Shown here in pieces: positions 13,352-21,126 of a stretch of DNA of 64,000 nucleotides. The position numbers and the translations under genes were made by a program. The notes under the pieces were generated by a model. That model saw only the letters and a list, made by a program, of their open reading frames with translations, had not been told where the DNA came from and did no database searches. This DNA comes from Armatimonadota bacterium. GTDB lineage: Bacteria > Armatimonadota > UBA5829 > DTLH01. The stretch lies in NCBI GenBank assembly GCA_039679675.1, contig JBDKUN010000065.1, positions 32,001 through 96,000 of the forward strand. The letters are read 5' to 3'. How positions within the stretch are numbered: the first letter of the stretch is position 1; each line of letters opens with the position of its first letter.

Positions 13352-14985
13352 ATTTTCCGGTAGACCTTTATCGTCGGTGACATATACTTCAGGTCATGCG
13401 GCAGGTTTTCGGTCGGACCGAAGGAGATATTGAAGGCTTTCAGATCTCTTTTGAATACTGCAACCTCTTTGTAAGACTTTTTCAAGCCTTCCAAAAACTT
13501 CATAGCGCTTGGAACCTGCAGCCGAACGGCATCTTCATACTCAAAATCGGTCATTACGATATATTCCGGCATTTCCTCATTCACAATCGACGGGTCCCAT
13601 TCCCCGCCGGGACCGGGGTTGACCTTGATACTGTAGCGCGAGTTAAGCGTCCCCTGAAACCGGTCGCTCCGGTTTACAGCCGTAGAGTCCGGCGAGATCG
13701 GTGGAGTATAAAACCACGGCACAGTCGGAAGCCCGATTGCAGCTGACGGCTTTATATTATCACTGAACCACTGCGCAGCCTGTGTTCTCGTGTCCGGTGC
13801 CAGGAACAGCAGGTCGAAAGATATCGCATAAATGCAGGTATAGCCTACTGCAGCAACGCATATACCGGCCCAGACCCACCTGAGCATCGCCGTCCCCTGC
13901 TCTTTCGCCACCTGGTAGACTTCCACTATCATACGGCCGACGAGTACCGCAAGAGGCGGAAGTATCAGGATCATATAGCGGGCGAACCTTACTTCCGACA
14001 TTGAGATCATCGCGTAGTAAGGAAGCACGAACGACAGTATAAGCCAATCAGCCGGTTTCCGGCGTACTACAGCCAGTGCGACTGCAGCAAGGACCACCAC
14101 AAGCAGAAATACCCCAAGCCCATAACCGAGCGAGTTGGAAAGAATATCGAGCCAGCCGGGACCCTTCCCCACAAACACAAGCCCATGCCCGCTTCCCGCG
14201 TGCCTTAGCTCGTAAGTAAACCCTTCGATGAACCGACCAGGACGAATAAGGACCGCCGGTGTAGAGATAAGAAATCCGGTCAGGAACGAGGGTGCTATCA
14301 TCCAAAACCTAGAGTCTTTCAGCCGCTTCAGGACTGAGACCTTGCCTTCTCTCAAAAAATGAGCCAAGAGAACTGGGATCAGCACAACTCCCGCGTTATA
14401 TTTGGTACCTGCGGCGATACCTGCCACGATGCCTGCCGCAATGTACCATTTAGGAGCCGGTTTTGCGATAATCATCGCTGAAGCAAGTAACGTTACAGCT
14501 ACCCAGAATGCGGCGGGGACATCTACCGTTGCAAAATGAGAGTGAACGATGTGAAGCGGAATGATGGCCATAATGACGGCAGCTAACACGCCTGCCGCAC
14601 GTCCGTAAAGCCGGTTTGCGGCCCCGTAGACGGCCAAAACGGTCAGCGTGCCGAGAATAACGACGGTAAGCCTGGCAATCAGATAGACACTGACAAGCGT
14701 TTTGTCTATCGTTACCCCGTAATACGGCGCGGTATGAACCGCAAGCGCGCCGAGGTTCATATATCCTGACGGATAATTATAGAAACCAGGGTCGAGCTGA
14801 AACGAAAATGGGTCGATCCTCAGCATAGCACCGATCTGGAAGATTTCATCCGGATGGTATGTAAACTGATGAAAAGCGTCGGGCAAACCCCAGTGGATAC
14901 CCCATATACGGAGTACAAACGCAGTGATCGTTATAAAAGTGACTGCAGCAGTCACCCATAGCTTTGCGGCAGGTTGTTTCTTCAT
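13348..14985 (-). CDS. GT-C superfamily (ArnT/PMT-like) membrane glycosyltransferase
   Basis: HPDE loop motif, YNYPS, HSHFATVD, TKY, RY motifs, many TM segments; ATG overlaps the upstream stop (TAATG at 14983-14987). Confidence 0.8.
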   Translation of the reverse strand: MKKQPAAKLWVTAAVTFITITAFVLRIWGIHWGLPDAFHQFTYHPDEIFQIGAMLRIDPFSFQLDPGFYNYPSGYMNLGALAVHTAPYYGVTIDKTLVSVYLIARLTVVILGTLTVLAVYGAANRLYGRAAGVLAAVIMAIIPLHIVHSHFATVDVPAAFWVAVTLLASAMIIAKPAPKWYIAAGIVAGIAAGTKYNAGVVLIPVLLAHFLREGKVSVLKRLKDSRFWMIAPSFLTGFLISTPAVLIRPGRFIEGFTYELRHAGSGHGLVFVGKGPGWLDILSNSLGYGLGVFLLVVVLAAVALAVVRRKPADWLILSFVLPYYAMISMSEVRFARYMILILPPLAVLVGRMIVEVYQVAKEQGTAMLRWVWAGICVAAVGYTCIYAISFDLLFLAPDTRTQAAQWFSDNIKPSAAIGLPTVPWFYTPPISPDSTAVNRSDRFQGTLNSRYSIKVNPGPGGEWDPSIVNEEMPEYIVMTDFEYEDAVRLQVPSAMKFLEGLKKSYKEVAVFKRDLKAFNISFGPTENLPHDLKYMSPTIKVYRKI

Positions 14986-15611
14986 TAGTCCGGGCAACCT
15001 TCCTTTGCTGCTCGTGAGGTTTTCGACTTTTTCGGACACATCGTTAGCTGGATCAGGATAAATATGCCAACAGCCATCAGAACATCGCCAATGCTGAATA
15101 TCCCCGAAAACACCTTTGAAAGCCCACATGGAAGAGCATCCGTAATGAGTTTAGGCACCGGTATAGTATCTCCCAGGAAATTGAATTTTGACCAGGCGCT
15201 ACCAGACATTACGATGTGTCTCATACCTTCTGACCGATTCAATACATCCGCCACTCCCGCTATGGCAGCGGCTTTTTCGGAAACAGGCATCTTTCCAGCG
15301 TTAAGCACTATCGGAAACAGGTTCAACACCCATCCGGCCAGGAACCACTTCATCCCCGGCAGTTTTCTATTCGCCCAGAAAAATACAAGAAACGCAATGC
15401 TCGCGATTATGTGCAGCAGGCCGGTCAGATGGGACCAGAGGATGGTTTTACCTAAATATTTCCCCAACACCATGGAAACGATGATAATGAACGCCGGGAT
15501 AAAGACAAGCCACAGGCTTTTTATCTCCAGATCCGCAAGCCGCCGGAGCCGCCCGCGGCGTATGAGCGCTATTATAATCGAGAGAATACCGGCCTCAAAC
15601 GCCAATTTCAC
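14985..15611 (-). CDS. DUF5317-like membrane protein with signal-peptidase-II-like motifs
   Basis: Hydrophobic; GxxLN...NAGKMPV, FLGDTI, IFSIGDVL; likely start GTG 15611 or TTG 15605 overlapping the upstream gene end. Confidence 0.75.
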   Translation of the reverse strand: MKLAFEAGILSIIIALIRRGRLRRLADLEIKSLWLVFIPAFIIIVSMVLGKYLGKTILWSHLTGLLHIIASIAFLVFFWANRKLPGMKWFLAGWVLNLFPIVLNAGKMPVSEKAAAIAGVADVLNRSEGMRHIVMSGSAWSKFNFLGDTIPVPKLITDALPCGLSKVFSGIFSIGDVLMAVGIFILIQLTMCPKKSKTSRAAKEGCPD

Positions 15612-16293
15612 ACCTGCCTTCATTCTTTTCAAGGACTTTCAAAAATGCATCCACAACTGAAGGATCGTATTTATTACCGAAACCACTTTTTATCTGCAAT
15701 ATAGCCTCTTCCTTCGGCTGAGACTGATGATATGGTCTGTCCGAAATGATGGCATCATAATCGGTAGTTACAGCAAGAATACGTGATGCAAGAGGTATAT
15801 CCTCACCCGACAACCCATCAGGATAGCCGGTCCCATCCCAATGTTCGTGGTGATGAAGGATCGAATCCCTCAAAAATGAAAGCGACGGCACTGCCTGTAC
15901 CATATCCGCACCGAGTGTCGAGTGACTCTTTACTTTCTCCCACTCAACAGGAGTCAGAGGCTCGCTCTTGTTGAGCAGCATTGCCGGAACATTCACCTTC
16001 CCGATGTCCCTCAAAAGCGCGGCATATTCTATCTCCAGCCGTTTATCTGTATCTATCCCCAGCTCATCCGCAACAGCAGTCGCATACTCGGCTACCCTCT
16101 TTGCATGGCCGATGGTACCAGAGTCCCTGGTTTCGACGGCAGCCGCAAGAGCATAAAGCGCCTTTTTGAAGGCTAACTCCATCTTGCGAGGTTGATAGAA
16201 GCTGGAATAATACCAACTTCCAAAGGTTATGATCGCAGCAACAGCCACCGCGATTATAACCGGCGGTGTCCACTGGCTAGCCATTGCCTCCAA
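15595..16293 (-). CDS. Single-TM HD-GYP domain protein with degenerate HD motif
   Basis: ETRD...GH, LRDIGK (H to R), HHHEHWDGTGYP, SDRPY; start ATG 16284 or TTG 16293. Confidence 0.85.
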   Translation of the reverse strand: MEAMASQWTPPVIIAVAVAAIITFGSWYYSSFYQPRKMELAFKKALYALAAAVETRDSGTIGHAKRVAEYATAVADELGIDTDKRLEIEYAALLRDIGKVNVPAMLLNKSEPLTPVEWEKVKSHSTLGADMVQAVPSLSFLRDSILHHHEHWDGTGYPDGLSGEDIPLASRILAVTTDYDAIISDRPYHQSQPKEEAILQIKSGFGNKYDPSVVDAFLKVLEKNEGRCEIGV

Positions 16294-17824
16294 CCCTTAT
16301 CCCCTCCCTGTCGACCATCTTGAGAAATGCATGCACAACATCCGGTGAAAATTGCGATCCGGCGCCTCTTCTAAGCTCGTTGATCGCATCATCGACACTA
16401 AGCGGTTCTCGATATACTCTGCGTTTCGGAGCGCCGCAGACAGGGCATACTTCCGGGCGCTCGCCGTTTTCAGCCTTGAAACCGCATGCATCGCACTCCC
16501 AGTCCACGGACATCTCCCGGTCATCCGTCATAGCATCGAATGCATCCGCAACAGCGATAATTGCGGCCTCCAGCGGAACTCCGCCGTTTTTCACTCCATC
16601 GTCAGGATAACCCGCACCATTTGCCCATTTGTGGTGATACTTTATCCAGTCTACTGTCTGGTTCAAAAAGTCGATATGCTCGACAATTTCTGCGCCTTTT
16701 ACCGGATGCTCTTTGATCTTCGACCATTCCTCATCCGTCAGCTTTCCAACTTTGTCCAGGATTTCCTCAGATACTCCCACTTTTCCGATGTCATGCAGCA
16801 GCCCAGCATAAGGCATAAGCATAATCGTCTCGGTGGAAAGCCGGAGTTCTCTTGCAAGCCGCTCTGAAAGCTCAGCAACGCGCTTCAGGTGCCCTCTTGT
16901 ATACGGATGGTAATGCTGCATATAGGTACCTAATGTGGCGATAGTATCCATATACATTTTCTCTCGCTCGACAGCTCTCTGAACCGCGAGACGGAGTGAA
17001 AGAAACGGCCCAAGCGCAACTAATCCACTCAATATACCGACATGAAGATACAGATAGATCAAAAGGACCGTGACCGGCGGAAGCAGCAGATATTGGCTCC
17101 ATGTCAGGCGGACGCTGCCCAGAAGCAAGATTTTCAACCTCAGGACAAAGCTGTACCAATCACTGCCTTTTTTAGGCGATTGAGGCTCATTTACCAGAGC
17201 TGCAGCAGCGCACCGCGCTTCATCAACTATAAAATATGTAATTATGCCGACTAAAAACGGCAGCGCGGCATGCAGGAAAAGCATGCTGTTTGAAGCGGAC
17301 ATAAAGTACCGCTGATCCAGAACATGCCCCCCTACGCATCTGTACGCAAGAGCTGCAAGTCCCACATTTATTACATCAAGCGCAGTATTGGCGATTATGA
17401 TTTCAAGTGCCCAGAAAAACGGATAATTCGCTCTACCTTCCCAGGCACCCGCTAAAGTCCTGATAATACTGTGAAGGCGGGTCGTTCCGGTATCTGATTC
17501 ATGGTTTTTCAGCCACCTGGCACACACCCATCCGGTAATATTGACGACAGGTAAAGGAATTGCGGCGACGAGCATTGCGAGGACAGGTCCGAACAGCACC
17601 ATTGCAGCCCAATGCATGGGAACGCTTATCGTTACTTCTCCCAAGCCATGCGGCACTGTAATAGGAGTTAGCTCCGACCATATTGCAAGTATTGCAAAGG
17701 CTAATGCCCCTTTCCAGACACCTGCCTCAGGCGGAATCACCCATAGCATTACGACTGCTATAGCCACCGCGGTCACTATCGATCCGCGGTAAAATAGATG
17801 AAACGACCTCTTACTACTTGCCAT
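16277..17824 (-). CDS. Multi-TM sensor plus HD-GYP phosphodiesterase with rubredoxin-like insertion
   Basis: Several hydrophobic segments, LLHDIGK, EHP, HHK..GAGYP, ADAFDAMT, inserted CDAC-x12-CPVC. Confidence 0.88.
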   Translation of the reverse strand: MASSKRSFHLFYRGSIVTAVAIAVVMLWVIPPEAGVWKGALAFAILAIWSELTPITVPHGLGEVTISVPMHWAAMVLFGPVLAMLVAAIPLPVVNITGWVCARWLKNHESDTGTTRLHSIIRTLAGAWEGRANYPFFWALEIIIANTALDVINVGLAALAYRCVGGHVLDQRYFMSASNSMLFLHAALPFLVGIITYFIVDEARCAAAALVNEPQSPKKGSDWYSFVLRLKILLLGSVRLTWSQYLLLPPVTVLLIYLYLHVGILSGLVALGPFLSLRLAVQRAVEREKMYMDTIATLGTYMQHYHPYTRGHLKRVAELSERLARELRLSTETIMLMPYAGLLHDIGKVGVSEEILDKVGKLTDEEWSKIKEHPVKGAEIVEHIDFLNQTVDWIKYHHKWANGAGYPDDGVKNGGVPLEAAIIAVADAFDAMTDDREMSVDWECDACGFKAENGERPEVCPVCGAPKRRVYREPLSVDDAINELRRGAGSQFSPDVVHAFLKMVDREGIRVGGNG

Positions 17825-17953
17825 TCAAACCATGTGGGCTGTCTAGAGCTTAATTTCGATGCTAGAGCAATGGCTCTAGTCTATAGTATGCCATCTTTGA
17901 AGCGTAACCTCTATCGGTAAAGACGGCGAATATTTTAGCATAATAATAAAATT

Positions 17954-18240
17954 ATTGAGCCAACGGCAGCGACAGTTTTATTTCAGGAACTGCTGTGTAC
18001 CTGCATACATCCATCAGTTCAATAATTGTAAACTATGGTGGTGGCCACTGTCTCCATGTGGCTCCGCAGGTTGCAGCCAGTGTCGCCAATGCGATCAGTA
18101 CCTTGAACAGGCGTTTCATGTTTTTCAACCCCTTTCGCGTGATACTACCCCTTACCGCTCAGATGGGGTGCATTCATCGCTTCGCTCGGGTTGACTTTTC
18201 CGCTCATTTTTGGATCTGCCGCTCGCGCCGTTGGCTCAAT
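17954..18240 (-). promoter_or_regulatory. Long-range inverted repeat enclosing the small peptide gene
   Basis: attgagccaacggc (17954-17967) is the exact reverse complement of 18227-18240; pairing extends about 8 bp past a 3-nt bulge with a G-U pair on the minus transcript. Confidence 0.75.
18033..18119 (-). CDS. Unannotated 28-aa secreted peptide precursor MKRLFKVLIALATLAATCGATWRQWPPP
   Basis: AAAGGGG RBS then ATG; basic N-region, hydrophobic core, GA, short Trp-rich tail; same strand as flanking genes. Confidence 0.8.
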   Translation of the reverse strand: MKRLFKVLIALATLAATCGATWRQWPPP

Positions 18241-18247
18241 TTGAAAA

Positions 18248-18901
18248 CTATTCTTTAGTTATCAATGTGGTTCGCCGGTTAATGGCATCCAGTGTAGCAT
18301 TAACCACAGCTTTCCATAAATCCTGCCTGACTATCGCGGAACCTGTTAAATAATCATCCCCGCGGTTCGTGACAAAATTGATCAATACTACAACAATATT
18401 CTTTCCGGCAAGATTGACTCCTGTGGTCATGTCTTCGACTACCATAGTACCGTCAGCCGCGCCTGCATCTTCGACCGCGCGCAGCGTTGCAGTCGCAATG
18501 AGCTTCATCTGGCTACTGCTCGAGCTTAAGCCCGTAGCAGTTCCCGTGTAAGCCACACCGTCTCTCCCTAAATGGACCGTAGCCTCTGCTCTGCTCCCTT
18601 CAAGAGAGATCGAAACGTCTGAAAACTTTAATCTGCCCTGCTCCTTTTTCTCATTACCCTGAAGTTGAGCTACGCTGACCTTTCGATGATCCAGCTGGAC
18701 GCCAAGTTTGGCCATAACCGCCGATTCGATGTCACGCACAACCTGTTTTGGGGCTCTACTTGCTTCCGTCAGAACGTGAATCTCCTCGATCTCTCCATCA
18801 TCGCCGGAAACTACCCGCGCAGATATCACATCGCGCAGCCGGCATATAACGGACTCAACATCAATCAGGTCGTCGATATTTTCTTTTCTTTCGACTGCCA
18901 T
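18248..18901 (-). CDS. Conserved cytoplasmic protein (PKQVVRDIES motif), C-terminal half resembling the LeuA allosteric domain
   Basis: EIHVL...PKQVVRDIES...DHRKVSVAQL; duplicated beta-beta-beta-alpha pattern ending AVVNATLDAINR; AAAGGAG RBS. Confidence 0.7.
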   Translation of the reverse strand: MAVERKENIDDLIDVESVICRLRDVISARVVSGDDGEIEEIHVLTEASRAPKQVVRDIESAVMAKLGVQLDHRKVSVAQLQGNEKKEQGRLKFSDVSISLEGSRAEATVHLGRDGVAYTGTATGLSSSSSQMKLIATATLRAVEDAGAADGTMVVEDMTTGVNLAGKNIVVVLINFVTNRGDDYLTGSAIVRQDLWKAVVNATLDAINRRTTLITKE

Positions 18902-19035
18902 TCTCCGCTCTCCTTTCGCCGCTACTTCCTTAAAGCGGCGCCCTCTCTTTTCCTCGCTTCGCCATTCGTGACTTTTATCGTCCGAATGGTCCTTTGCCTG
19001 AAAACCGGCTATATAATTCTTGCACCGTTCTTCAG

Positions 19036-21126
19036 CTACCCACGGAATATCGCTTTGAACTCCGATGCAAGATTATCTTTTATTTTTTCAAGAACAGCGT
19101 TGATTTCCTCGTCCTTAAGTGTACGTTCTTTCGATCTGAAAACTATTGAGAGTGTCAGACTCTGCTCATCCTCGCTCACATGCGGGCCGACATATACGTC
19201 CAGAAGGCTCACATCTTCAAGAATAGCCCCACCTGCTTCGATAACTGCTCTTCTGATGTCACCATAGGGCACATCCCGCTTCACAACGGCAGCAATATGC
19301 CTGTAAAGAGCCGGGAACTTCGGAAGATGTTCGTATACTATCTTCTCAGGAACAAGAGACTTCAGTTTCTCAACACTCAGTTCAAATATATACGGACGTC
19401 CCTTTATATCCAGCTCGTTTATGACTTCAGGAGCGACTTCACCGATGATACCTATCTCTGCATTACCGGCTGTAATCTTTGCGGCTCTGGTCGGGTGAAG
19501 CATAGGGTGCTCAGTGCGCTCGAACCTCACACCGGAAATCTTCAATCTGTCGAAGATATTCTCGACAACTCCCTTTATGAGATAAAAATCAGCCGCCATC
19601 GCTTCTTTATCCAGGTTCCAAGAGTTTGACCACTGATTTCCGACCATTGCACCTGCCACTGACAGCCACTCGGTCACAGCTTTGTCCTTTTCCAGCCAGC
19701 GATAGACTTTACCGATCTCGTAGATGCTCATATCACGGATCCCGTTCGCCTGGTTCCTCACGATGACCCGGAGCAGGTTCGGTGCAATCATTGTCCTCAT
19801 CCCCGCTGTTTCCCAACTGAGCTGGTTTCGCACGAAGATAGAGTTTTCCTGACCGGCGATTCTGATGCTGTTATGATCTATAAGGCTGTGTGTAAGGACT
19901 TCCTGCATCCCTGAGGACATAAGCGTCCGCCGCATTTCCTGCACGAAAAGCCCCATGTCGCTGTCTTTGCCCTGGAACGGCGCAGGCGGAAGAGTGCTGC
20001 CGATGCTCTCATAGCCATAAGCTCTCGCAATCTCTTCGATCACATCTGCCTCGAGCCGTATATCCGGCCTGAACGTCGGAACCGTTACGACAATATCTTC
20101 ATCTTCAAGAGTTGCAGGTATCTGGTACACTTCAAGGAATGACACCATTTCCTGGGCACTCAAAGAGGTGTCGAGCATTGCGTTTACCCGTTCAGGGCGG
20201 ACAGTAACCTTGAATATGTTATCTTTGGCAGGATACAGGTCTACAAGGCCTTCGGCTATTTCGCCGTCAGCCAGGTCCCGCATAAGCTCAGCGGCTCGTT
20301 TGGCTACCATGTCAGCTGTGCCGATATCCACCGAACGCTCAAACCGGTAACTGGACTCTGTTACGATACCGAGCTTCTTTGAAGTCCTTCTGATAGAGAC
20401 CGGATTAAAGTGCGCAGACTCTATGAGAATATTCTTCGTGTCGGGTTTTACCTCAGAATCAAAGCCGCCCATAATCCCTGCAAGCCCGACAGCGCGGTTT
20501 TTATCAGCAATAACGAGCATGTCAGAACCCAGCTCGCGCTCTTCACCGTCAAGAGTAGTCAGCTTCTCGCCGGCATTTGCGCGACGGACTATGATCTCTT
20601 TCCCCTCCAAGAGGCTGTAATCGAACGCATGCAGTGGTTGTCCCATCTCAAGCATCACATAGTTGGTGATATCCACTATGTTATTGATCGGCCTCATGCC
20701 TGCGCGGATCAGCCGGTTCTTCATCCAGGCTGGGGAATCCTTTACCGTCACATTGCGGACAACGACGCCGACATACCTGTCACAGAGGTCAGGATCTTTA
20801 ATAGTGATCTTTATCTCCGATGCGGATGAAGGCGGAACGCCTGAAGCTTCAGGCTGGGGTATTTTGACGGGGCTTTTGGTAAAAGCGGCGACTTCGCGGG
20901 CGACACCGATAAGCGACAGCCAGTCCCCTCGGTTCGGCGTGACTTTCGTAAGCATCACGCGGCTGTCCACAGCATCAGGCATGCCTCCTGCGTGGGAGAC
21001 CTCTTCACTTTCCATCGAAGAGATCTCCTCGACCTCAAGCCCGGCCATAGTAAGCTTATCAGCCAACTCCTCGACTGATCCGCCTGTCTCTACATATTCA
21101 TTAAGCCATTCAACTGGAACTCTCAT
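19036..21126 (-). CDS. pheT: Phenylalanine-tRNA ligase beta subunit (short form without B2 OB domain)
   Basis: TPNRGD, INNIVDITNYV, GQPLHAFD, RFERSVD, RPDI...EEIAR, FDX-ACB C-terminus. Confidence 0.95.
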   Translation of the reverse strand: MRVPVEWLNEYVETGGSVEELADKLTMAGLEVEEISSMESEEVSHAGGMPDAVDSRVMLTKVTPNRGDWLSLIGVAREVAAFTKSPVKIPQPEASGVPPSSASEIKITIKDPDLCDRYVGVVVRNVTVKDSPAWMKNRLIRAGMRPINNIVDITNYVMLEMGQPLHAFDYSLLEGKEIIVRRANAGEKLTTLDGEERELGSDMLVIADKNRAVGLAGIMGGFDSEVKPDTKNILIESAHFNPVSIRRTSKKLGIVTESSYRFERSVDIGTADMVAKRAAELMRDLADGEIAEGLVDLYPAKDNIFKVTVRPERVNAMLDTSLSAQEMVSFLEVYQIPATLEDEDIVVTVPTFRPDIRLEADVIEEIARAYGYESIGSTLPPAPFQGKDSDMGLFVQEMRRTLMSSGMQEVLTHSLIDHNSIRIAGQENSIFVRNQLSWETAGMRTMIAPNLLRVIVRNQANGIRDMSIYEIGKVYRWLEKDKAVTEWLSVAGAMVGNQWSNSWNLDKEAMAADFYLIKGVVENIFDRLKISGVRFERTEHPMLHPTRAAKITAGNAEIGIIGEVAPEVINELDIKGRPYIFELSVEKLKSLVPEKIVYEHLPKFPALYRHIAAVVKRDVPYGDIRRAVIEAGGAILEDVSLLDVYVGPHVSEDEQSLTLSIVFRSKERTLKDEEINAVLEKIKDNLASEFKAIFRG

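Follow-up and report, generated by a model that had tools for sequence, protein, structure and literature searches.

A perfect inverted repeat that encloses one short gene and lies just past the stop codon of another poses the question of whether it works as DNA or as RNA, and to what end. Such a repeat occurs in an Armatimonadota bacterium (assembly GCA_039679675.1, contig JBDKUN010000065.1, positions 32,001 to 96,000); this stretch of 64,000 nucleotides (nt) is referred to here as the window, and coordinates are given within it. The two arms, ATTGAGCCAACGGC and GCCGTTGGCTCAAT, are 14 nt long, 100% complementary and separated by 259 nt, at 17954-17967 and 18227-18240. The genes concerned read on the minus strand, on which the 5′ arm (18227..18240) begins after a 7-nt gap (18241-18247) from the stop codon TAG (18248-18250) of a gene that we call X, and the 3′ arm (17954..17967) follows a small open reading frame (sORF) of 28 codons. 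By our own arithmetic, the chance expectation for a perfect 14-mer inverted repeat within about 600 nt is roughly 7e-4. The element is single-copy in its 3.1-Mb genome, which excludes a multi-copy mobile element.

In the minus-strand minimum free energy (MFE) fold, the 14 outer pairs are followed by a 3-nt GCG bulge (18224-18226) and then by 8 more pairs, one of them G-U, between the inner 5′ strand AGCGGCAG (18216..18223), which holds the first copy of an AGCG motif described below, and the inner 3′ strand CUGUCGCU (17968..17975). Counted around the bulge, the stem contains 22 pairs, and its inner helix GGCAG/CUGCC is seen again in relatives. The repeat, its distance of 7 nt from the upstream stop and its continuation past a bulge with a G-U pair on the minus-strand transcript had all been described in an initial annotation of this DNA, and each is borne out here. 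The predicted energy of the minus strand, -109.2 kcal/mol (z = -4.73), was equalled by 0 of 100 shuffles. The plus strand also folds well (z = -4.09), so the strand cannot be assigned from folding of a single sequence.

Comparison with homologous loci was more informative. A DNA search of 41 related genomes yielded the loci L001-L020, all 20 of which contain both arms and an ORF of the same family with 27-32 codons. When an alignment of 22 Armatimonadota elements (A3) was folded with RNAalifold, the long-range helix was recovered unguided, with the outer 5′ arm in columns 10-22. Of the 285 cells at A3 helix positions 97.2% are paired, and double changes occur in 10 of 13 pairs, whereas sliding the partner by 1-3 columns lowers pairing to 19-50%. 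The values for paired cells, double-change pairs and covariation score were matched by 0 of 500 column shuffles, counts that are not probabilities because the A3 sequences are kin. Covariation across homologous loci, which the initial annotation had named as a check on an RNA helix, is therefore present. Remoter Armatimonadota members, found by covariance-model search, carry further compensatory arms. The clade-specific covariance model R1 matches 8 of 151 sampled Armatimonadota genomes; this is no estimate of distribution, since R1 is blind to the differently built versions in Fimbriimonadales, Bacillota and Actinomycetota.

The wider family was reached through X. In a one-genome-per-species collection, 578 of 600 candidate stretches were confirmed by tblastn as holding X relatives, giving at least 578, and the best 80 of these were examined. 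The examined loci span Armatimonadota (including Fimbriimonadales and Chthonomonadia), Bacillota (Symbiobacterium, Thermincola, Syntrophomonadaceae, Thermoanaerobacterales and Clostridia), Coriobacteriia, one Limnocylindrales metagenome-assembled genome (MAG) and one Sumerlaeota MAG. An X gene was identified in 99 loci, and in 85 of them a small hydrophobic ORF lies downstream; removal of the genome duplicates L021, L023, L024 and L036 and of the doubtful ORF calls L049 and L099 leaves a set of 79. The sequence of the 5′ arm depends on the clade (examples are UGAGCCAACGGCG, CAGGCAAGGCAAGC, UGAAGCCGGCAG, UAAGGGCCGAC and UUAAACCGGCCGCAAGA), and is matched in every clade by a complementary cognate 3′ arm. 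By a scan for uninterrupted helices, with a median of 13 bp (interquartile range 11.5-15) over the 79 loci, the helix in 61 loci exceeds every one of 40 shuffled versions of its 3′ region, with a median z of 5.1 and z below 2 in 11. As a further control, each 5′ arm was set against 15 non-cognate 3′ regions from loci whose X proteins are less than 45% identical, and the cognate helix exceeds all 15 in 63 of 78 loci; the 15 failures include interrupted helices (L071, L079, L080 and L098) and some weak helix calls. In order-level relatives the helix is interrupted by an 11-nt asymmetric loop, and in the MFE folds of five elements from four clades it is the outermost helix. We consider it very probable that the helix is a selected RNA structure.

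Two local variants were seen. In L005 and L036 the helix is lengthened to 31 bp and has short tandem repeats next to it, CCCATGA units before its 5′ arm and GGTAAGAGGTTAGAGG-type units after its 3′ arm. In the 10 Coriobacteriia elements, the complementary arms were read locus by locus, as the automatic alignment A7 misaligned the 3′ arms; A7 columns 23-27 and 212-216 indicate that the 5′ arm can instead pair with GGCGGCGGC (Gly-Gly-Gly) codons of the sORF, which is either an artefact or a real alternative.

Several observations bear on whether the repeat acts as RNA or as DNA. At the helix positions of A3 there are 12 G-U or U-G cells against 3 A-C or C-A cells, the latter all at the terminal pair, and among 66 distinct helices the interior non-Watson-Crick positions (three pairs on either side) comprise 13 G-U, 5 A-C and 6 others. 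The AGCG motif occurs 300 times in the leaders of the 79 loci and its complement CGCT 14 times, a strong strand bias. Of 90 loci, 74 carry its tandem form on the sense strand and a single one carries it on the antisense strand, a locus that has a sense copy as well; with an antisense-only state in 0 of 90, no inverted state is seen between species. The G-U excess, the strand-specific motif, and the constant orientation together with that of the genes favour a helix in the sense-strand RNA. A DNA-level feature, such as the terminal repeats of a mobile element, an invertible switch or paired protein sites, would account for a perfect inverted repeat around a segment of about 260 bp and for a plus strand that folds almost as well. 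This reading is, however, extremely unlikely, given the single copy, the fixed orientation, the predominance of G-U over A-C and the divergence of the arms between clades while they stay complementary; nor was a recombinase gene noticed nearby in the ORF list or by Pfam on five neighbouring ORFs. The preference of the initial annotation for an RNA helix over a DNA site is upheld by the compensatory changes, the G-U excess, the AGCG strand bias and the lack of inverted loci.

The RNA between the arms is organised around the AGCG motif. In the window, sequence, fold and alignment place a structured leader at 18126..18215 on the minus strand, with AGCG motifs at 18201-18204, at 18183-18186 and 18178-18181 (the tandem AGCGAAGCG) and at 18156-18159 in a hairpin loop. 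AGCG is the commonest 4-mer of the 79 leaders, its 300 copies in 7,612 nt comparing with 48 ± 6.7 in shuffles; the median leader has 4, and 71 of the 79 have at least 3. The tandem AGCGRAGCG is present in 65 of 79, and in 44 of 79 no more than 6 nt separate the first AGCG from the end of the 5′ arm. Order-level relatives carry a UAGCGR motif in a bulge within the stem, and the hairpin with a UAGCGR loop covaries, with double changes in 6 of 6 pairs. The Shine-Dalgarno (SD) sequence of the sORF is paired with CAACCC in the window MFE fold, forming an SD-sequestering helix (CAACCC/GGGGUUG, 18188-18193/18126-18132), here P2. The leader has the structural mark of a riboswitch or protein-binding leader, that is, covarying helices around invariant unpaired nucleotides and a platform that pairs with the SD. 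The distances around the helix vary widely, with the 5′ arm -3 to +164 nt from the X stop and the 3′ arm +2 to +120 nt from the sORF stop over the 79 loci; the sole invariant is the topology, in which the helix always closes over leader and sORF. One 12-mer of the leader has a second exact match, which falls within a 563-aa ORF and was dismissed as chance.

The enclosed sORF (18033..18119, minus strand; 28 codons plus stop, MKRLFKVLIALATLAATCGATWRQWPPP) encodes a signal-peptide-like product. Among 13 Armatimonadota ORFs of equal length, dS (the synonymous rate) was usable in 44 of 78 pairs, and dN (the non-synonymous rate) is below dS in 44 of 44; the dN/dS ratio, taken as a ratio of means, is 0.20, and for the same DNA in frame +2 it is 2.3. 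With dN below dS in all usable pairs and a ratio of 0.20, the sORF is coding. Across the family its peptides have about 24-45 residues, with a basic N-terminus, a hydrophobic stretch, an (A/S/G)G(A/S) motif and a short aromatic-bearing tail, which is WxxWPPP in the window clade. None of 18 sORF peptides reached a curated Pfam or NCBIfam cut-off. The sORF stop is followed, ahead of the stem's 3′ strand, by a 3′ untranslated region (UTR) with a local hairpin (17976..18032), and directly 3′ of the 3′ arm is a U-rich tail, AAUUUUAUUAUUAU (17940..17953).

What might such a helix do? AGCG motifs lie at or inside the stem base in most loci, which favours a closing, scaffolding or insulating helix. 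We propose that the inverted repeat forms P1, a long-range helix that lies outermost in a conserved mRNA module on the minus strand, which would be co-transcribed with X. P1 joins the RNA just past the X stop to the RNA downstream of the sORF, creating a closed domain of about 290 nt that contains the leader with its 4-5 single-stranded AGCG(R) motifs, the local helix that locks the SD, and the sORF itself. It may fix how the AGCG motifs at its base are arranged in space, upon which a putative trans-acting factor would gate translation of the sORF, and it may insulate this switch from the adjoining cistrons as well as from ribosomes that terminate 7 nt upstream. Candidates for the factor are the co-inherited protein X and a small ligand linked to cyclic di-GMP (c-di-GMP) signalling. 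A consensus scan detected no promoter- or terminator-like site between X and the 5′ arm, which we count in favour of this proposal. Our confidence that P1 closes, scaffolds or insulates an AGCG-presenting regulatory domain falls a little short of even.

Several results weigh against this proposal. Removal of an arm in silico leaves the predicted accessibility of the sORF ribosome-binding site (RBS) unchanged (means 0.38, 0.37 and 0.37), with a rise of more than 0.1 in 0 of 79 loci; as accessibility is the same with and without P1, folding provides no sign that regulation depends on P1; secondary-structure prediction is blind to the scaffolding of a binding site. The SD-holding helix P2 is invariant across the alignment and, since it never varies, is uninformative on selection. 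In 18 of 79 loci the uninterrupted helix is not above shuffles; in four of these, the same L071, L079, L080 and L098, interrupted helices can be picked out by eye. Extension of the helix ends does not single out a strand, the sense version being longer in 31 loci, equal in 20 and the antisense version longer in 28. X has no recognised RNA-binding domain, its fold matching a LeuA regulatory-like and a generic ferredoxin-like domain, and in Moorella and at a Thermoanaerobacterales locus X occurs without the element and is followed by secA.

The main rival, which the initial annotation had already put forward, is that the stem serves RNase III-type processing or end protection, yielding a discrete sORF mRNA of about 290 nt and uncoupling the peptide level from that of the neighbours, a function that would be compatible with a scaffold. 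RNase III substrates usually extend over about two helical turns, which is what the 22 pairs and 3-nt bulge of the window stem amount to. The stem also sits exactly between cistrons and encloses one whole cistron at every locus, and the local duplexes, bulges included, have a median of 25 pairs in greedy duplexfold calls made without a shuffle control. On the other hand, the median uninterrupted helix is only 13 bp long, and the 11-nt asymmetric loop breaks it in order-level relatives. A look for transcripts over 17700-19000 turned up no RNA run with this stretch, and three metatranscriptome runs contained next to none of its sequence words. We judge processing or stabilisation possible though doubtful. 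Translational coupling or occlusion is unlikely. In this scheme, comparable to secM-secA, mifM or erm, the stem would hinder initiation of the downstream gene for an HD-GYP protein, or of the sORF, until one arm is melted by ribosomes completing translation of X or of the sORF. Here the geometry is often suggestive, with the 5′ arm -3 to +15 nt from the X stop in 34 of 79 loci, no more than 20 nt between the sORF stop and the 3′ arm in 31 of 79 and the HD-GYP start at most 35 nt after the 3′ arm in 39 of 74. Moreover, the sORF ends in WPPP in the window clade, and poly-proline is a slow-translation motif. In the window, however, 64 nt lie between the sORF stop and the 3′ arm and 129 nt between that arm and the HD-GYP start, and HD-GYP RBS accessibility is not raised by removal of the 5′ arm in silico, with 8 loci up and 12 down of the 39 near ones and 2 up and 6 down of the 35 far ones. 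The sORF RBS is opened by arm removal in none of the 79. Peptides of 24-28 residues would still be in the exit tunnel at termination, which makes secretion-force sensing improbable.

The two other RNA-based explanations treat the helix as a transcriptional or translational off-switch. If the 3′ arm paired with a free 5′ arm and was followed by a U-rich tail, the pair could act as a long-range intrinsic terminator or attenuator that ends the X-sORF transcript, the HD-GYP gene being served in this clade by a promoter of its own. The sequence AAUUUUAUU right after the window 3′ arm would suit such a role, as would the conserved GCCATAAT-like box before the HD-GYP gene in Armatimonadota loci, and 14 of 79 loci, the window included, have at least 6 T among the 9 nt that follow the 3′ arm (mean over loci 3.56 T against 2.68 in control windows). 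A clear U-run is nevertheless absent from the other 65, a terminator scan returned 0 hits in 17700-19100, and the HD-GYP start lies within 11-30 nt in many Bacillota loci. The loop, at 259 nt, is also ill suited, a 260-nt loop being kinetically unlike known intrinsic terminators, and this possibility too must be considered improbable. A small hydrophobic peptide, a sequestered SD and a 5′-3′ long-range helix recall the pattern set out in two accounts of type I systems (PMC6733600, PMC8594479). On such a reading the sORF would encode a membrane toxin whose mRNA, like those of hok or AapA, is kept inert by end-to-end pairing until it is processed. Fold-back control of this kind had been offered in the initial annotation and is not borne out in silico: it is a local hairpin that holds the RBS, predicted accessibility is unaffected by P1 (no rise in any of the 79 loci on arm removal), and the element is single-copy with fixed X/HD-GYP synteny over several phyla and under purifying selection, not patchy and multi-copy. 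A consensus scan, a weak test, detected no plus-strand promoter-like site reading antisense into the sORF. A type I toxin-like function is very unlikely.

We return to the proposed regulatory domain and to the genes with which it is inherited. X (18248..18901, minus strand; 217 aa in the ORF list) always precedes the element. Its AlphaFold2 (AF2) model has a mean confidence (pLDDT) of 91.3 and combines a ferredoxin-like N-terminal domain with a C-terminal fold of the LeuA/citramalate-synthase regulatory type. Residues 89-212 resemble the Ile/Leu-binding regulatory domain of citramalate and isopropylmalate synthases (3f6g_B, Z 9.7, root mean square deviation 3.1, 109 aligned), with a Foldseek E value of 2.6e-6 to LeuA. 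Residues 5-81 adopt the common ferredoxin-like fold, with Z of 7-9 to many families, and are uninformative on function. X had no Pfam, NCBIfam or PDB sequence match above cut-off, its clusters in the ESM Atlas are labelled only 'hypothetical protein', and it is labelled 'predicted nucleic-acid-binding protein' in only two source records. X and the element are also lost together, as five element-less relatives have no X ortholog; four of them have a 30-33% match to the X C-terminal domain inside ORFs of about 450 aa, and one has none.

Downstream, the window encodes a membrane HD-GYP protein of 515 aa with a rubredoxin-like insert (16277..17824, minus strand; domain assigned by Pfam), starting 129 nt after the 3′ arm, a distance with a median of 32.5 nt across loci. 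The downstream gene contains HD_5 (HD-GYP) in 15 of 15 other loci tested, with MASE9 called in 6 of the 15. MASE9 is a membrane sensor domain for which ligand binding within the membrane is suggested in a preprint by Galperin and Chou, where the only MASE9 protein studied by experiment is also described as poorly expressed (10.1101/2021.11.05.467447). The operon continues on the minus strand with a second, short HD-GYP gene (232 aa) and a gene for a DUF5317 membrane protein (215 aa), at 14985-16293. The genes upstream of X vary (pheT in the window, hpf in 5 of 15 loci, ribonucleotide reductase and others), so the conserved unit is X-sORF-HD-GYP. In the Clostridia locus L082, a raiA RNA (RF03072, 174 bits; 417-653) precedes the hpf gene upstream of X, and in two Syntrophomonadaceae loci (L071, 1-2316, and L091, 3-2327) the ribonucleotide reductase upstream of X carries a LAGLIDADG intein. 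In the region that separates the 3′ arm from the HD-GYP gene, a conserved GCCATAAT-like (-10-like) box is seen at 17883-17892 (minus strand) in the window and at the same position in L003, L004, L006, L008-L010, L014, L017-L020 and L025, all Armatimonadota, which suggests that in this clade the HD-GYP gene has its own promoter.

The peptide may connect the element to the HD-GYP protein. For a 45-aa Fimbriimonadales peptide and the first 262 residues of its HD-GYP protein, complex prediction gave a score of 0.52 (best of 3 controls 0.00), with runs agreeing in at least 77% of contacts and a partner pLDDT of at least 52. The mark that this score passes is passed by 116 of 157 solved complexes and by 2 of 215 mismatches, scores up to 0.60 comprising only 18 of the 157 solved complexes, yet both passing mismatches. 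The prediction lends weak support to this part of the HD-GYP protein as the peptide's partner; it is a lead, and silent on the RNA helix. In Fimbriimonadales (L030-L043, L048 and L068) the sORF has 43-47 aa, with a signal peptide ending in ASA and a conserved hydrophilic tail, KRVYYPHRWDDP, and its product looks like a secreted peptide. A lipoprotein reading of the sORF peptide was rejected, the Cys being replaced by Ala in many relatives. In Cys-containing clades, a conserved GCAGGU in the 3′ UTR can pair with ACCUGC (Thr-Cys) codons of the sORF (18000-18010 with about 18076-18081 in the window; also L003-L005, L012 and L019).

At its broadest, our proposal is that the AGCG-repeat leader and P1 together constitute an RNA switch of a new class, one that senses a ligand or a protein, is linked to c-di-GMP turnover and occurs in no fewer than four or five phyla. 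The sensor would include P1 and would reach its decision only on the finished mRNA; the switch would gate synthesis of a signal-peptide-like micropeptide acting on the MASE9-type membrane domain of the HD-GYP phosphodiesterase encoded next to it, and the protein partner of the sensor would be X, whose C-terminal domain is of the LeuA regulatory type. We offer this tentatively, as a doubtful but possible extension. Searches of Rfam 15 returned 0 matches at E≤1, c-di-GMP classes included, for window positions 17000-19500, and none at the element at E≤0.1 for 12 other loci. We found no published description of the element in the literature, including searches by AGCGGAGCG and in the context of MASE9 and of HD-GYP small ORFs or riboswitches; the family behind c-di-GMP-I riboswitches outlined in PMC13724677 is of different, larger small proteins. 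The locus thus presents a structured RNA with a repeated 4-nt motif and a micropeptide gene, beside HD-GYP genes in distant phyla and outside Rfam, and the element provides a handle on the control of MASE9-type HD-GYP enzymes.

Comparison with characterised systems places the element close to several of them. With type I toxin mRNAs (hok with its fbi pairing, and Helicobacter AapA/IsoA) it shares an end-to-end helix around a hydrophobic ORF of about 30 codons with a sequestered SD. Here, however, the SD is held in a local hairpin, P1 has no effect on predicted accessibility, no antisense RNA is indicated, and the element is single-copy, syntenic, present in multiple phyla and embedded between two protein genes instead of forming a free-standing transcript. 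The RNase III stems of rRNA operons and phage early mRNAs are likewise long-range helices that flank a whole functional unit within a longer transcript, whereas in the present case the uninterrupted helix is usually 11-15 bp, the enclosed unit is a leader and an sORF and not a stable RNA, and cleavage is hypothetical. Leader-ORF control (secM-secA, mifM-yidC2, erm) likewise has a small hydrophobic ORF and a long-range stem ahead of the controlled gene, here that of the HD-GYP protein; by contrast, the window stem does not contain the HD-GYP RBS, 129 nt away, and X and the AGCG leader are part of the unit.

The remaining resemblances are to ligand-sensing RNAs. The guanidine-II (mini-ykkC) riboswitch has a short ACGR motif repeated in hairpin loops, and both RNAs repeat a 4-nt motif with a G/C core in loops or junctions of a leader before a small gene. 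The present element differs in its motif, AGCGR, in the 3-5 copies of it, in its architecture and in lacking an Rfam match; loop-loop pairing of AGCG motifs would be a further likeness, although this is speculation. With the P1 helices of riboswitches and protein-binding leaders it has in common covarying stems around near-invariant unpaired nucleotides (AGCGRAGCG and the UAGCGR loop) and an SD-sequestering platform. Unlike a riboswitch P1, however, the helix described here encloses the whole regulated ORF, and it can therefore form only after that ORF has been transcribed. A helix drawn over an entire cistron inside an operon is an unusual architecture.

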